DNA of 64,000 nucleotides from Candidatus Bathyarchaeota archaeon (GTDB taxonomy: Archaea > Thermoproteota > Bathyarchaeia > TCS64), in assembly GCA_963771885.1 (NCBI GenBank), contig CAVYVF010000002.1, forward strand, positions 384,001 through 448,000, in the 5' to 3' direction. A program made the position numbers. The number at the start of each line of letters is the position of its first letter. Position 1 is the first letter of the stretch. Shown here piece after piece: positions 33,001 to 39,000 of this stretch.

Positions 33001-36000
33001 CTAGGGTGCCAACGTCGAGGGGTGCATGGTTCATCGATAGCACCTCGGCGGCGACGACGTGGCCGGGGCGGCTCGCGTACTCGAAGGGGGGGGTGACGAA
33101 GGGTGATGAGACTCGCAGATACTCCTCGGGAACACGCCCCTCCATGAGATTCCTTATGGATACCTCCAGTTCCTCGCGTGCCTGTCGGAGGTCTTCGTTG
33201 TGCACGGCGTCGGCGGTGGGTGGGGTGAGTGGGCTCTCTATGACGCGCTGCTGTAGGTGGTTCACGTAGGTGGGCGTGTCGCGTGCGGTGTGCGAGCACG
33301 TGATGACACTTTGGGGAACCCCTTTTATGCGTTGGTTTCCCTAATCGATCGACCTTCATGGGCGGAATTTTGGCAGTCGTCTCCCACCCCGACGATGAAA
33401 CTTTCGGTTGCGGTGGAACACTAGCTCTCCACGGCGGGGAATCTACAGTGCTGTGCCTGACATGTAATCCCCGGAACAGGAGCAGTGAGCTGGAGACGGC
33501 GTGCGGGGCTCTCAGCGTCGCTAAACCCATCATTTTTATGGAAGACGACGTCGCCCCGTCGAGGGGGCTCGTGAGGCGGATCGCAGACGTAATCGTGGCT
33601 TCAAGGCCAAACGTCGTAATCACCCATCTGCCCTTCGACTACCACGCCGACCATAGGGCGACCTACAGCGTAGTGAAGGAGGCGATTGAGTGGGCGGCGC
33701 ACACCACCACAAATGAGGAGCCACATCTAGTGAAGCGATTGTTGCTTATGGAGGTGAACACTCTGATACCTAATCCCCACGTGGTCGTCAACATAACGAA
33801 AATGATGAAGAAAAAGATGATAGCTGTTGAGGCCTACCCTACGCAGCTTATCAAGTTTACGTGGGGCTATTATCAGAGGTTCGTCGAGGAAAAAGCGAGG
33901 CTTCGCGGGGCACAGGGCAACTGCGCTTACGCTGAAGCCTTCATTGAGGAGTCGATTGCTGAGAATAGCCCCTTTTACGAGGCGAAGACGACGAGAAACT
34001 TGCTGAGGTGATAGTGATGAGTGAGAACCCTCCAGTACACATACTTTACCAGAAGTTCACCGAAAATGACCCAGCTGGGGAGTACGCTCCACAACTTTGG
34101 GGGAGGATCCCAAGAAACATGGCTGAGTGCCATGGTTACCTCGCCGAGATAAGGGCGAAATACGGCACGCCTCCAGCGGAGCTTGAGGACCTGAAGAAGG
34201 CTATGAAGGCACAGATGCGGAGTCTTGGCATACTCACAAAGAAGACCGAGACGCATATAGACACTCTCGACAGGGGTGCCGTTGAAACGGGGCAGCAGCC
34301 AAACTGTCTCGGGGGCCCCAGCTTCATCTTTAACAAGATAACCTATATCGCCACGCTCGCAGGGCTCGGCGGCGGCTACGTTCCCCTCTACTACGTTGGC
34401 GACTACGACAGCGTTCAGGCGGAGCTTATTAACATACGTGTCCCGAGCCCTTCCGCCAAGGGAATGCTGATCACCTACCCCTCATCCTCAGAATATGAGG
34501 GCGCCCCCATCAGGAGGCTGCTAAACCCCGATGAGGAGTGGCTGAGGAAAACACTGGAGAAGGTGGAGAGCAACTACCGAGGCCTCCTCAAAGGCGTCGA
34601 GCCGGCGAGGCAGGAGAAGGTGCTTCAGAACCTCTCCCACATCAATACGATAATCAAGAACTCCTACTATTCTACCGAGAACGTCGCCGACTTCTCAACG
34701 AAGATACTCGGCTCTATCGTTAACTTGGAGGTGGACATGGGTATACCGATGCTCTCAGCCACTCACCCGTCGATCAGGGGCTTCTTCCGGCACGGCTATG
34801 AGGTGCTGCTATCAGAGCCGAACAGGAGCAGCTTCATCAGAGCGTCGAACGACGCAGTCGACCTCATCGAGGGGCTCGGCTACAGAGCGCAGATAGGTAA
34901 AAGGGGGATGGACTACGTGCCTTTTTTCCTTGAGTGCCAGACGCCGAGCTGCTACGGCAGCAGAGTCGAGCTGAAGTATCATATTAACGGTTCAAATGCG
35001 AGCGTCGAGGGTAAGTGCCAACGATGCGAGCAGGAATACAGCTACTCGTTCTCGGCTGAGAGACCGGATATTTCGGAGATCGCAGAGATCATTACACCTC
35101 GAGTCGACTCCCGTCAGGTCGTCGTCGACTCCGTCATTCCTGTACTAGCCCATGTCGGTGGACCTGGCGAGACGAGTTACTATGCAGAGGTCATCCCAGG
35201 TATCTCGGGGCTTGACTTAGCCTTCCCCACATTCACGCGATACGCCCGCGTCTTTTATAACACACCGTGGAATGAAATCGCCGGGAAGTCCCTCGAGGCG
35301 AGAGGCTATATAACACTCTCCCGCAGGGAGCTGTTCGATGCGCTAGCCTCGTGGGTTGAGGCAAAGAGGGCGGGAAACCTCGAGGGCACCGCAAAGGCAC
35401 ACGTTGATATAAGGAAGGCTATCGACGAGACCTATACCATGCTGAGCAAGTCGAAGGTGGACGCCGAGGCGGAGGTCAACTCCATTAAGAAGAATCTTTC
35501 AGACCCCTCCACGCGCGCTATCCTAATTCAAGAGATGAAGATTAAGCAGGTGCTGACCGGTGAGTTAGACACCTACTTATCATACGCTTTCGGTCACTTC
35601 GCACCGGAGAAATACGGGCAGGAGGTAAGCTGGACCTGGATCGACCTTGCCCTAACCTCAGGCATCGGGGAGAACGTTGGCATATACAAGAGGCTCTATG
35701 GCGGCAACACACCCAACTCGACGGTCTTTTTCGTTAACCTCTAGATTTCACTGACTCGAAGGTCTCGATGTACTGATTAACGACCTTTTCCGCTGTGTAT
35801 CGCTCAAGGATGGTTTCGCGCGCCTTTTTTCCTAGCTTGTTCCTTAGCTTCTTGTCCCCGTAGAGGCGGAGTATCGCTTGCGCCAGTTCCTCGGGGTGCT
35901 TTGGCGGGACAAGGAGCCCGTTCTCGCCGTCGTCTATTATCTCGTGTACACCACCGACCTTCGTGGATACCATCGGTAGCCCCGTGCTCATGCCCTCTAG

Positions 36001-39000
36001 GAGTGTCAGCGGGGCGCTCTCAGTCTCGCTACAGAGGATGCCTATATCGGCGCAACGCATGAGGTTGGGTATGTCGCTTCTAAAACCGGTCATCGTCACG
36101 TTTCGCTGTAGCTTGAGACTGCTGATCAGAGTCTCGACGCCGTGCCTGTCGGGGCCATCGCCAACAAGAGTGAGGTGTGCCTTTGGCTTCTCTTTAACGA
36201 CGATCGCCATCGCATAGACTAAGTCATAGACCCTCTTAACGGGGCGGAAGTTGCTGACGTGGATTATACCGCCGCATTCGTCGCAGCCTGTCTCAACTGC
36301 GTCGCACTCCTTAGGGCTGAAGGCGTCGGCGTCGACGAAGTTGGGTATGACCTTGACCTCGCGCTCGATGCCTAAGCGCTCGTATGCTTCTCTCTGCATG
36401 AACGCGGAGACGGCGGTGACAGCGTCCGCTTTCTCAACATTGTGGTTATTGACTATGTGATAGCTGGGATCGCTTCCGAGGATTGTGACATCGCTACCGT
36501 GAAGAGTGACGACGTAGGGGACGCCGGTTATCTCACGGGCTAAGAAGGCGGCCGTCGCGTGGGGGATAGCATAGTGGACGTTCAGGACGTCTAGCTTCTC
36601 CTCTTTGGAGACGCGCGCCATTTCGGAGCCGAGCGCCACCGTATAGGGTGGGTATTTGAATAGGGGGTACTCTAGGACGTTGACGAGGTGGATGTGGACG
36701 TTCTCCTGGTCTATGCCTTGTACGGCGAATGGACGTTCATAGGTAATGAAGTGGACATCGTGTCCTCTCTTGGCGAACTCGACGCCGAGGCGTGTTGCGA
36801 GTATCCCGCTGCCGCCTACTCCTGGGTAACATGTGATGCCAATTCTCAAAGATGCGCCTCCTAACAACTAGCGGATATAGAAAGGTGAAATAAAAAGGGG
36901 TGGGCGCCTACTTTGTGCCCTTCATCCTCTTCTCGACGCCGAGGATGGCCGCGATCTGGCCCTCATGATGGATGATCTCACTCGTCATCAGCATGAGGTA
37001 GAACTCGCGTGGTTTCTTCCCGGCCCAAGCCTCGACTGGCTCGTCGAGCTGCTCGTTTGTCAGCTTATTCAGGCCGGCGTTGAGCTTCCTGTGCCCTTTG
37101 GCGATGTCGGCGAGTATCTTCTCCTGTTTGTACTTGGGGTTACCGACGTAGTCCTTTGGCCAGTCCTTCGGTTGCTCCGAGCCGAGGAACTTTGGCATGT
37201 AAACGTTCAGCTCCTCGCTCAGGTGGGTGAGTATCCACCTGATCGTGTTAGCCTGCGTGCAGCTCTTCCAATCGATCTGTTCGGGCTTCAGGTTCTTCGT
37301 GGCGCTCTCGAGCCTGTCGAACCCAATCTGTGCGAAGTCCTTTATCATCTTCGTCTTGACTGTCATCGGATCACCAGAATCCGAGTTTTATCTCTGATTC
37401 AATGTGTATATAATACTACCCCTAAAAAGGGGTGTTTTCGGAGTTTTTCAGCACTTGAAATCGGGGTCTGCGGCCTTAAGGCGCTTGACCGTACCGCGGA
37501 TGTAGGCAATCTGGCCCTTGTGATGGACGATCTCGCCAATGTATGCGAAGAGACCTATCTTCCTCTTCTTGGTGCCGCCCCAGAGCGGAATCTCCTCCTC
37601 TAGCTGGGCGTCGGTCAGCTTGGCGATGCCGTCGAGAGTCACCTTCTTCCCCGCGGCGAGGTCCGCCCTGTACTTGTCGAGGCTGTAGTGCTGCTCCTTG
37701 TAGTCGTCGGGCCAGTCAGAGGCTTGTAGTTTGGATCCCCCTTAATTATACGAGGGAGCGCCGTGTTGCTTATCCTGCAGAGGTGGTTGACTATCCACTC
37801 TATGCTATTTGACTCCTCGGTCATCTGATAGTTCGCCTCGTCCATCTCAAGTCCCTTGAGCTGCTCCTCGAGGGAGTTATAGTGGTACTCGGCATACTCC
37901 TTCAAAATCTGTGCTTTCGCTGACAAGTTGTTCACCAAGATGGTCTACCTATGTTGGGGGTTATATCGCTTGTTACGATTTACTCAGCGAATGTAAGCAC
38001 CAAGGCCGGACTGCGAGGGGCTGAATCCTTCCAGGTCTTCAGATATCCTCCGCCCAGTGAGGGCATGGATATTCACCGAGTAAATTATGCCCGTGTTCTC
38101 CAGGTATAGTATAGGCCCCTTAGCGCCAAGTATTTTCCCCGCTATCGCTACGTTGTCCCTTATCTTCACATCGATTGGGCGAACTTTAGTCTGGGGAAGC
38201 TCGTATACGGGAGATAATAGGGTTGTTGCCTCGTCTATCCGAGCTGCGAAAGGTAGTATTTGACGTATCTTATCCGTAAACTCTTCGAGGCTTTTAAGAC
38301 CCCATTCTAGCTCTCTCGGGTCAGTGAACGCTGTTTTCTCATCGGCCTTGACACGTTTCAGTGCGCCTAGTTCGTCCTGTATCCTTTTCTCGTAGACCCT
38401 CACCTCACGGCCGTTCCCCGCTAGGACCCTACGTGCCGCGTCTGCGCCTTGCTCAATCCACCTCTTCTCGACCCTTCGCCCCTGAGAGACGCCTGCCTTG
38501 ATCCTGTCGCCGAAGACTGCGAGGTAGACGAATGCCTCACTCCGCTCGCATGCCTCCCTAACACTTTGGTGGGCGGAGCATGATTCACCCGTGCAGCGGG
38601 CGCAGGGGCCGGATGCGTCGTTCGTTGCGCATGCTCTGCACTGGTTCCCGGAGTCGGCCAGGGAGGAAGTGGGGCATGGAACGCGTTCCTTCCAAGAGTC
38701 CATCATCGAGTAGTCGCGCGTGACACGTGAGTGACCGACGCAGAACCTCCCTCTACCGATCCTGAAGGAGATGTTCTTATCTCTCTCTAGAACGACCTTG
38801 CCGGGGTTGTCGGCCGTCAACAGCTTCACCCGCCAAACGCCATCGAGGTTCTCCCACTGTGTGGCGTAGACGAGCCGGACGGACATCGCACTGTACTGGG
38901 TGTGTGTGAATCATGAACCCTTCGATCGCGAAGGTTTGAAGTCCCATGAGGTGCATTTTGGGCTATGAACGTCATCGAGTCGAAGGACGGGAATACGATT

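Follow-up and report, generated by a model that had tools for sequence, protein, structure and literature searches.

A Candidate Bacillithiol-Type Thiol Pathway in One Family of Bathyarchaeia

Can an archaeon make bacillithiol (BSH)? This protective sugar-cysteine thiol has, to our knowledge, so far been measured only in bacteria. The question is raised by a gene cluster in a Candidatus Bathyarchaeota archaeon (assembly GCA_963771885.1), within a 64,000-nucleotide stretch of contig CAVYVF010000002.1 (the window). A first-pass annotation had read four genes at window positions 33358-37366 as a BSH cluster new to Archaea, and the two papers it quoted do say what it reported: a section of a 2020 review predicts BSH in archaea from Asgard homologues (PMC7278568), and a passage of a 2025 survey finds no archaeon with the full pathway. 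We regard the novelty of the cluster as moderate. The survey's result comes from RefSeq BLAST with strict thresholds, the review had already proposed archaeal BSH, and NCBI already names relatives of the BshC-like protein “BshC.”

The four open reading frames lie exactly where they had been placed, and their translations are intact and full length. The block is larger than described, however, since a fifth gene, a second DinB paralog, belongs to it (Table 1). The PIG-L stop overlaps the BshC-like start by 4 nt, and these two translationally coupled genes are convergent to bshA. Because GC is uniform across the window, the neighbours are archaeal (prefoldin, PAC2) and the contig is 498 kb long, the cluster is native to the archaeal genome.

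Table 1. Genes of the cluster, in window coordinates
Gene product	Position	Strand	Length (aa)	Basis or remark
PIG-L family metal-dependent deacetylase (BshB-like), proposed GlcNAc-malate deacetylase	33358..34011	+	217	PF02585 and BshB1 TIGR04001 profiles, metal motifs
Archaeal-type BshC-like protein, proposed cysteine-adding enzyme	34008..35744	+	578	PF10079, AF2 model, Foldseek
BshA, GT4 UDP-GlcNAc:L-malate N-acetylglucosaminyltransferase	35734..36867	-	377	TIGR03999 equivalog, match to 3mbo
DinB_2/MST-like protein, proposed thiol S-transferase (paralog 1)	36908..37366	-	152	PF12867, PF04978
Second DinB/MST-like paralog, split into two frames	37448..37944	-		1-nt deletion near 37718-37721

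In an NCBIfam profile search, BshA scores 390 bits on the equivalog TIGR03999 (cut-off 273.7; profile positions 2-373 of 375), reproducing the 391 bits given earlier, and the next-best family reaches 153.6 bits. It matches the B. anthracis BshA structures 3mbo (308 bits, E 8.7e-91, residues 3-369) and 2jjm (306 bits) and B. subtilis BshA 5d00 (283 bits). Since this equivalog represents the L-malate enzyme and the BshAs of the Bathyarchaeia family score 289-422 bits on it, the profile scores argue for GlcNAc-malate as the first intermediate, with L-malate as the putative acceptor.

Is the coupled PIG-L protein, previously called BshB, the deacetylase of this pathway? It passes PF02585 (61.8 bits, cut-off 28.2), and the NCBIfam ranking is indeed headed by BshB1 (TIGR04001, 76.5 bits, cut-off 182.5), followed by BshB2 (TIGR04000, 58.7 bits, cut-off 195.25) and MshB, with both BshB scores below their equivalog cut-offs, as the first-pass annotation had said. 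In a PDB sequence search, however, archaeal diacetylchitobiose deacetylase (Dac; E 5.8e-8) ties with BshB1 (6p2t; E 8.1e-8). Judged from sequence, then, the protein is not assignable to BshB, being as close to archaeal Dac as to BshB1. It carries the metal motifs H10-P-D-D13 and H96-A-D98-H99, in which H10, D13 and H96-x-D98-H99 probably correspond to the His12/Asp15/His113 ligands described in a section of PMC5790435.

The BshC-like protein passes Pfam PF10079 (Rossmann-like_BshC; 61.1 bits, cut-off 27, profile positions 53-374 of 380) and fails the equivalog TIGR03998 (69.7 bits, cut-off 265.8), as had been found before. The Pfam search detects no CC_BshC domain in it, and its sequence matches solved BshC only at E 0.02. 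Its AF2 model (pLDDT 96.2) has a Rossmann/class I aaRS-like fold with long C-terminal helices at 440-528. Foldseek ranks B. subtilis BshC first (4wbd; E 3.1e-20, TM 0.66/0.70, 595 alignment columns) and a class I LysRS second, with MshC far lower (E 0.13-0.18). As modelled, the protein keeps the BshC fold, including the C-terminal helical domain.

Nine columns (Q97, G103, K110, D134, E139, R319, G385, E388, Y391) show no variation among 35 archaeal-type and 16 canonical BshC sequences. Specific to the archaeal type are R365, S/T368 and a Cys3-4 knuckle (C310/C315/C337/C340) flanking the invariant R319; C310 and C337 occur in 35/35 and C340 in 34/35 archaeal-type sequences, and the knuckle in 0/16 canonical ones. 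All 27 close archaeal-type representatives fail TIGR03998 (19.5-103 bits), while 21 canonical representatives score 267-515 bits. Alignment and profile scores place the BshC-like protein in a distinct archaeal subfamily that occurs in Bathyarchaeia and in Asgard archaea. We can rule out that it is a weak canonical BshC, given this separate subfamily with 27/27 below the equivalog.

In CysRS and MshC the cysteine substrate is bound through zinc. By analogy, it is tempting to suggest that the conserved Glu-Cys...Cys-x-x-Cys site beside Arg319 in archaeal-type BshC might bind a cysteine substrate in the same way. No organism's BshC reaction, that of bacteria included, has yet been reconstituted, according to a section of PMC5790435; if the zinc-cysteine reading is true, archaeal-type BshC could let this long-unsolved reaction be reconstituted.

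The neighbouring gene reported as an MST-type DinB transferase does encode a DinB/MST-like protein, a putative thiol S-transferase. DinB paralog 1 scores 48.7 bits on PF12867 (DinB_2; cut-off 24.8) and 32.7 bits on PF04978 (MST; cut-off 27), and its only NCBIfam match is NF047843 (MST) at 27 bits against a cut-off of 170, below equivalog level; a PDB sequence search gives no match at E <= 0.1. The genome has four DinB paralogs. The N-terminal part of the second scores 26.3 bits against MST, and in relatives intact orthologues occupy the corresponding position; contigs of three metagenome runs (close relatives) have an additional base at 37713 or 37717 that restores its frame.

How widespread is the cluster? 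The trait had been put at about a third of the order (27/78), but those figures were lower bounds. By a six-frame search, 59/79 genomes of the order carry the BshC family, and relatives of this BshC-like protein occur in 60/79, i.e., about three quarters, all in one family. That family comprises 71 genomes including this one, 60 with the BshC-like gene and 11 without; five of the 11 are at least 94% complete. BshA over the cut-off is present in 56 of the 60 and in none of the 11, never without the BshC-like gene. As the two genes stand side by side, finding them together adds no independent evidence. The same split is seen for a DinB homologue (57/60 versus 1/11; 1-8 paralogs per genome, many unlinked), Thioredoxin_9 (48/60 versus 1/11) and an Amidohydro_2 orthologue (52/60 versus 0/11). 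Many copies of these three sit on contigs other than the cluster's, which means that linkage does not account for their distribution. In a sample of 330 genomes of the class outside the family, neither the BshC-like protein nor Thioredoxin_9 is found (0/330 each), and DinB occurs in 3/330. The shared distribution of the unlinked DinB paralogs, Thioredoxin_9 and Amidohydro_2 points to thiol chemistry.

The arrangement is conserved as well. Among 20 large-flank loci from 19 genomes, BshA adjoins the BshC-like gene in every one, PIG-L is present in 18 and at least one DinB gene in 15; Amidohydro_2 stands between PIG-L and the BshC-like gene in 16, and Thioredoxin_9 between the BshC-like gene and BshA in 6. 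No methyltransferase or acyltransferase gene occurs in the conserved block, either among the window neighbours or in these 20 loci. The bacterial recycling enzymes, none of which the first-pass annotation had identified, are not found genome-wide either: in this 92% complete genome nothing passes YpdA/Bdr (TIGR04018; best 72.4 bits versus 339.9), and the bacilliredoxin families BrxA/B (PF06491) and BrxC (PF11009) have no match. Nor was a GCS2-type gamma-glutamylcysteine ligase found in the genome.

Independent archaeal lineages carry parts of this module. Archaeal-type BshC lies beside a GT4 passing the BshA equivalog in archaeal locus L073 (371 bits) and in a Heimdallarchaeon (L083, 359 bits). 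In Thor/Promethearchaeia its neighbour is a PIG-L scoring above the BshB1 equivalog cut-off (199.8 bits versus 182.5), in the cassette GT2 - PIG-L/BshB1 - BshC-like - Amidohydro_2, with GT2 in place of BshA. In five Asgard genomes with the archaeal-type protein, no BshA scores above the cut-off (the best reaches 153 bits), and most Hod/Heimdall-type copies lie among housekeeping genes, with neither BshA nor PIG-L beside them. Taken as a whole, then, the subfamily is not bound to BshA.

In our view the cluster probably encodes a native archaeal route, shared across the family, to bacillithiol (Cys-GlcN-malate) or to a glycoside thiol almost identical with it, and also supplies enzymes that use this thiol. 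The earlier proposal of BSH or a close variant is thus the best-supported reading, because of the equivalog-level BshA, the translational coupling, the arrangement kept in 20/20 loci and the coinciding phyletic patterns. Against a BSH-type pathway count the BshC-like and PIG-L scores below the equivalogs, the YpdA/Bdr, BrxA/B and BrxC genes not found, the BshA-free Asgard copies and two frameshifted accessory genes. In the proposed pathway, BshA would join GlcNAc (from UDP-GlcNAc) to L-malate, as its equivalog-level match suggests. PIG-L would then remove the acetyl group (family, metal-binding motif, coupling to the next gene), and the archaeal-type BshC-like enzyme would add cysteine to the free amine (fold, conserved core residues, gene context). 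The DinB/MST-like paralogs may conjugate the thiol to electrophiles, the family-specific Thioredoxin_9 CxxC protein probably replaces the missing bacilliredoxins, and the Amidohydro_2 enzyme, whose gene accompanies either the cluster or a DinB paralog, probably acts on the thiol or on conjugates made from it. A bolder version is possible, though we hold it only tentatively: that one Bathyarchaeia family runs a complete, self-contained low-molecular-weight thiol system on bacillithiol chemistry, built from BshA, PIG-L and zinc-knuckle BshC with several DinB proteins, Thioredoxin_9 and Amidohydro_2.

The product could instead be a variant thiol other than BSH, with another aglycone, an extra modification such as N-methylation or acylation, or a thiol-bearing residue other than free L-cysteine added by the divergent BshC-like enzyme, served by the same thiol-dependent accessory enzymes. 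The separate BshC subfamily with its knuckle, R365 and S/T368, the PIG-L scores under the BshB cut-offs and a conserved Amidohydro_2 that lacks a counterpart in the bacterial pathway would fit this, as would the GT2 of the Thor/Promethearchaeia module, which therefore tolerates a different first step. The BshA scores across the family and a conserved block free of methyltransferase or acyltransferase genes speak against it, and we think a variant unlikely.

More distant from BSH is a non-thiol product of the BshA/PIG-L/BshC-like trio, such as GlcN-malate or an aminoacyl-glucosamine that serves as a solute, as the precursor of a cofactor or as part of the envelope, with the DinB and thioredoxin-fold genes as unrelated neighbours. 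This seems distinctly improbable: the DinB/MST-like paralogs and Thioredoxin_9 track the cluster's presence and absence in the family and hardly occur elsewhere in the class, Thioredoxin_9 even lies between bshC-like and bshA in some loci, and the BshC-like core residues are shared without exception with canonical BshC. In its favour are a BshC reaction not established even in bacteria (same section of PMC5790435), a PIG-L equidistant from chitobiose deacetylase, Hod/Heimdall-type BshC-like genes without BshA and a dedicated disulfide reductase not found in the genome. As for a decaying or silent relic, 1-nt frameshifts do break two accessory genes, the second DinB and the Amidohydro_2 orthologue (contig C2 of this genome, 41209-42152), and in the nearest relative an internal TGA interrupts Amidohydro_2. 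Yet the core genes are intact, close relatives in the three metagenome runs keep the second DinB frame, and two metatranscriptome contigs fall inside the bshC-like gene, a weak hint given possible DNA carry-over; we give the relic hardly any credence.

The pathway that we favour, for BSH or a close relative of it, can be set beside known systems. With the Asgard loci it shares the archaeal-type BshC subfamily, the PIG-L partner and a recurring Amidohydro_2-family neighbour, although Amidohydro_2 differs widely between the two groups (34% identity over 77 residues). The first enzyme here is a true BshA (GT4), whereas the Thor/Promethearchaeia cassette has GT2; only the Bathyarchaeia family has DinB paralogs and Thioredoxin_9 in the block; and most Hod/Heimdall copies are unlinked to any of these genes, with BshA linkage in some Heimdall-group genomes.

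Compared with the bacterial BSH pathway (Bacillus, Staphylococcus, Deinococcus, Chlorobiota, Bacteroidota), the archaeal cluster differs in its knuckle-bearing BshC subfamily, in a BshB-like protein below the cut-off and in having family-specific Thioredoxin_9 and Amidohydro_2 partners where YpdA/Bdr, BrxA/B and BrxC are not found. Its genes are also clustered, while those of Bacillus are spread over several operons, as a section of PMC5790435 describes. The two systems draw on three common enzyme families that follow one another by the same logic, with an equivalog-level BshA, the PIG-L metal motif and a BshC that agrees in fold and in nine invariant residues; each also has DinB-superfamily transferases, of the BstA type in bacteria.

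The mycothiol pathway of Actinomycetota (MshA/MshB/MshC/MshD, with Mca and MST) stands further off: BshA reaches 63 bits on MshA (cut-off 462.5) and PIG-L 30.6 bits on MshB (cut-off 224), Foldseek ranks MshC far under BshC, and the block is without an MshD-type acetyltransferase. The two nevertheless follow one logic, in which a GT4 glycosyltransferase acts first, a deacetylase of the PIG-L family second and a cysteine ligase of class I aaRS-like type third, and they share transferases of the DinB fold, MST being the one NCBIfam family that DinB paralog 1 matches.

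The gene block most likely makes bacillithiol (BSH) or a near analogue and carries the transferases that go with it. Its four intact open reading frames (ORFs), P0001 to P0004, were re-read at the positions assigned in the first-pass annotation, and the family scores of the four proteins were reproduced with NCBIfam and Pfam. P0003 scores 390 bits on the BshA equivalog TIGR03999 (cut-off 273.7), with 153.6 bits for the runner-up family. The solved BshA of B. anthracis matches its residues 3-369 at 308 bits (E 8.7e-91), and the match to B. subtilis BshA is 283 bits. P0001 has PIG-L (PF02585, 61.8 bits; cut-off 28.2), and its top NCBIfam match is BshB1 (TIGR04001) at 76.5 bits, below the cut-off of 182.5. 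P0004 passes DinB_2 (48.7 bits; cut-off 24.8) and the Pfam MST family (32.7 bits; cut-off 27), scores 27 bits on the MST family NF047843 (cut-off 170) and has no match among PDB sequences at E <= 0.1.

Features of the gene block and of related genes elsewhere in the same genome. Positions are in the window unless a contig (C2, C22) or an extracted locus (L090, L091) is named.
Feature	Position	Strand	Remarks
P0001, PIG-L deacetylase	33358-34011	+	217 aa ORF
P0002, BshC-like	34008-35744	+	578 aa ORF
P0003, BshA	35734-36867	-	377 aa ORF
P0004, DinB/MST-like	36908-37366	-	152 aa ORF
DinB2, DinB/MST-like paralog	37448-37944	-	fifth gene of the block; two frames
DUF2797 protein	37984-38886	-	Cys-rich; 51.9 bits
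Amidohydro_2 orthologue	C2:41209-42152 (L090:3207-4318)	-	71% identical; adjoins DinB paralog
DinB paralog beside Amidohydro_2	C2:42251-42727		
Thioredoxin_9 orthologue	C22:74996-75634		52% identical; motif WCLDC
Thioredoxin_9 and second PIG-L genes	L091:2994-4353 (C22)	-	overlapping genes

The genes are tightly packed. The 4-nt overlap of P0001 and P0002 points to translational coupling, P0002 and P0003 are convergent with an 11-nt overlap, and P0004 lies 40 nt upstream of P0003 on the same minus strand. DinB2 is split between two frames, with one base missing near 37718-37721. Contigs of close relatives from three metagenome runs in three studies carry one extra base here; in two runs it stands behind 37717 and in the third behind 37713, and in our reading either base reopens the frame. 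The break must therefore be either peculiar to the strain or an artefact of assembly. The gene directly upstream of the two DinB genes encodes the DUF2797 protein.

Could the cluster belong to a bacterial contaminant contig? The contig that carries it is 498 kb long. GC is uniform across the region, the neighbours encode prefoldin, a PAC2 proteasome chaperone and the glycine-cleavage H and T proteins, and the same block recurs in two genomes that each consist of a single contig, both from the family of order TCS64 to which the window's genome belongs (hereafter the family). Given even GC, archaeal neighbours and the block kept in those two genomes, we reject a contaminant; the cluster is a real, native one that extends across the family.

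We compared 20 loci for which large flanks were available; they come from 19 genomes of the family. BshA is convergent to the BshC-like gene in every one of them, PIG-L is in the block in 18 (the exceptions are the two copies in a single genome), and at least one DinB paralog in 15. Two BshC-like/BshA pairs occur in one single-contig genome of the family (L036 and L037), and a P0001-like PIG-L stands beside neither. Two accessory genes join the block: an Amidohydro_2 gene (156 bits on PF04909) between PIG-L and the BshC-like gene at 16 of the 20 loci, and a Thioredoxin_9 gene (197 aa, WCGDC motif) between the BshC-like gene and BshA at six, all from a single genus. The window's own genus has a compact block, with both accessory genes located elsewhere in the genome. 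In this genome the unlinked Amidohydro_2 gene has a DinB paralog as its neighbour, and coordinates place the two side by side in seven relatives of the genus as well; this adjacency hints that the enzyme might process thiol conjugates. The orthologue in the window's genome has a 1-nt frameshift and that of the nearest relative an internal TGA; these breaks may mark decay of the gene in this lineage, or both may stem from misassembly.

On C22, the gene for Thioredoxin_9 overlaps another PIG-L gene, whose 245-aa product is very divergent and has no NCBIfam match. An Amidohydro_1 (Xaa-Pro-dipeptidase-like) gene comes next, and a Cys/Met PLP enzyme is encoded nearby. We considered the second PIG-L as a conjugate amidase and rejected it: the pairing with Thioredoxin_9 is found in the window's genome and two of the three other genomes of the genus examined, and was not seen in four genomes of other genera or in G064, a genome of the same genus.

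How widespread is the cluster? The first-pass annotation had placed it in about a third of the order; a six-frame search with PF10079 raises this to 59 of 79 genomes; the window's family contributes 58 of 70, and the other three families none of eight. BshA scores above its cut-off in 56 of the 79 (289-422 bits). In a sample of 401 genomes of the class, relatives of P0002 (E <= 1e-10) occur in 60, namely the window's own genome and 59 of the 70 others of its family, and in 0 of 330 elsewhere. The family is thus split into 60 genomes with the BshC-like gene and 11 without, five of which are 94-96% complete.

Co-occurrence of the cluster's partner genes with the BshC-like gene (genomes with the gene/genomes in group).
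Gene	Family, BshC-like-positive	Family, BshC-like-negative	Other families of the order	Rest of class sample
BshA over cut-off	56/60	0/11	0/8	
P0004-like DinB	57/60	1/11		3/330
Thioredoxin_9 orthologue	48/60	1/11		0/330
Amidohydro_2 orthologue	52/60	0/11	0/8	

In the four genomes with the BshC-like gene and without BshA, the BshC-like gene is at a contig end. The co-occurrence of BshA and the BshC-like gene says little by itself, since the two are adjacent and related genomes are not independent. Many copies of DinB, Thioredoxin_9 and Amidohydro_2, however, lie on contigs other than the cluster's, and their joint loss with it is our best argument for a thiol product that transferases and a redoxin use. 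Two observations on single lineages belong here: G064 (94% complete) lacks the BshC-like gene, BshA, the DinB paralogs and Amidohydro_2 and has kept the Thioredoxin_9 orthologue, and in another family of the class sample (f27) 3 of 11 genomes have a P0004-like DinB (43-45% identical) and no BshC-like gene.

P0002 passes PF10079 (61.1 bits; cut-off 27), and its sole NCBIfam match is TIGR03998, at 69.7 bits against a cut-off of 265.8. Is it a weak canonical BshC, or a form of its own? We scanned 1.84 billion representative sequences at E <= 0.001 and obtained 178 hits. Of these, 74 reach E <= 1e-10 and 49 reach E <= 1e-30; past 1e-10, the aligned part of full-length matches is mostly limited to short conserved segments. 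On TIGR03998 the 27 close full-length representatives all stay within 19.5-103 bits, while among 33 distant hits 21 exceed its cut-off (267-515 bits), four score 224-251 and eight are weak or scoreless. The named members of the close group are Asgard archaea (Ranarchaeia, Hodarchaeales, Thor-, Prometh- and Heimdallarchaeota). When a quick maximum-likelihood tree with 58 rows is rooted on the canonical sequences, 16 canonical and 42 archaeal-type sequences are split with SH-aLRT 100, and the nine Bathyarchaeia rows form one clade (SH-aLRT 100). P0002 is an archaeal-type BshC, not a weak canonical one. Relatives of P0002 already bear the NCBI name 'bacillithiol biosynthesis BshC [Candidatus Bathyarchaeota archaeon]', and protein atlas matches are to BshC-named clusters only, from Bathyarchaeota, Thorarchaeota and Bacteroidota.

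By sequence, P0002 barely detects solved BshC (E 0.02). AlphaFold models it with very high confidence (pLDDT 96.2, pTM 0.94), and by far the best PDB match to the model is B. subtilis BshC 4wbd (E 3.1e-20, TM 0.66/0.70, 16% identity); the next is class I LysRS. Nine columns are invariant among 35 archaeal-type and 16 canonical sequences (Q97, G103, K110, D134, E139, R319, G385, E388 and Y391). In the archaeal type, R319 is flanked by cysteines at C310 (35/35), C337 (35/35) and C340 (34/35), with a fourth at or near 315 (18/35 in that exact column); no canonical BshC has cysteine in these columns (0/16). We read these residues as a putative zinc knuckle. We also predicted a complex of Amidohydro_2 with the archaeal-type BshC encoded next to it at the L042 locus, each entered as an alignment. 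At a score of 0.12 against a mark of 0.32 the complex is unsupported, and the result counts neither for nor against binding.

With eight closer BshC-like sequences as query, we located 36 loci in species-representative genomes, 28 of them without a Bathyarchaeia label. Most copies of the Hod/Heimdall type have conserved housekeeping genes around them (aminotransferase, ArgRS), with no BshA or PIG-L within 7 kb; in five such genomes no BshA exceeds the cut-off (best 153 bits). This clade, which has a long stem in the tree, may have another role, given the lack of BshA and PIG-L nearby and of BshA over the cut-off in those five genomes. Its members (L054-L072 and L078, from Hod-, Heimdall-, Hermod-, Thor- and Promethearchaeota) share synteny with a class I/II aminotransferase, ArgRS and LPG_synthase_TM. 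Elsewhere the BshC-like gene abuts a GT4 gene above the BshA equivalog cut-off, at 371 bits in one archaeon (L073) and 359 bits in a Heimdallarchaeon (L083). In four Thor/Promethearchaeia loci (L085-L089) a GT2 gene precedes it, and in three of these (L085, L087, L089) so does PIG-L, as found by tblastn; that of L085 is above the BshB1 equivalog (199.8 bits; cut-off 182.5). An Amidohydro_2-family gene follows in all four; these amidohydrolases are only distant relatives of the Bathyarchaeia one. Linkage of archaeal-type BshC to BSH-type partners is thus recurrent in separate lineages and not universal, since most Hod/Heimdall copies are unlinked.

In the window's genome (92% complete, 6.7% contamination), no YpdA/Bdr scores over its cut-off (best 72.4 bits against 339.9), and BrxA/B, BrxC and a GCS2-type gamma-glutamylcysteine ligase were not found. 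Two ORFs were considered as the thiol disulfide reductase and set aside as generic matches unlinked to the cluster: a thioredoxin-reductase-like ORF (72 bits on YpdA) and a CoADR/Nox-like ORF (287 bits against 578.8), the sole CoADR-like match. In no public sequencing run does the share of the sampled words exceed 0.45. Metatranscriptome run X20 (share 0.05) has two contigs within the bshC-like gene (34426-34639 and 34923-35068), a weak hint of its expression.

A search of full-text literature for bacillithiol with 'Bathyarchae' or 'Asgard' found no description of the cluster; the sole relevant paper was a review (PMC7278568). In its treatment of archaea, BSH is measured in bacteria only and possibly present, so far undetected, in archaea; it lists 39 archaeal InterPro hits each for BshA and BshC, chiefly Asgard, and leaves the low-molecular-weight thiol of most uncultured archaea an open question. 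The passages of PMC12719100 on archaea report none with BshA, BshB and BshC together. By its account of methods, Chlorobaculum queries were compared with RefSeq by BLAST, and E 1e-20, 80% coverage and 25% identity were needed; a BshC with 16-20% identity would fail this filter. On that account, our results show that the 2025 statement that no archaeon has the pathway is an effect of database and thresholds, not biology.

A full BSH-type gene set is thus present, within one conserved block, in an abundant archaeal group of sediments and soils. The cluster makes specific genes available for work in other hosts and sets a definite mass to seek when environmental thiols are profiled. According to the relevant part of PMC5790435, the BshC reaction is yet to be reconstituted; a divergent, compact archaeal BshC that is predicted to fold well, with its putative metal knuckle, may offer fresh material for solving it. 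The cluster is a variant of a known system whose last enzyme is a previously undescribed archaeal subfamily. It differs from the bacterial BSH system in its recycling and accessory genes, and the trait comes with its own predicted thiol-using enzymes, unlike the bacterial ones.
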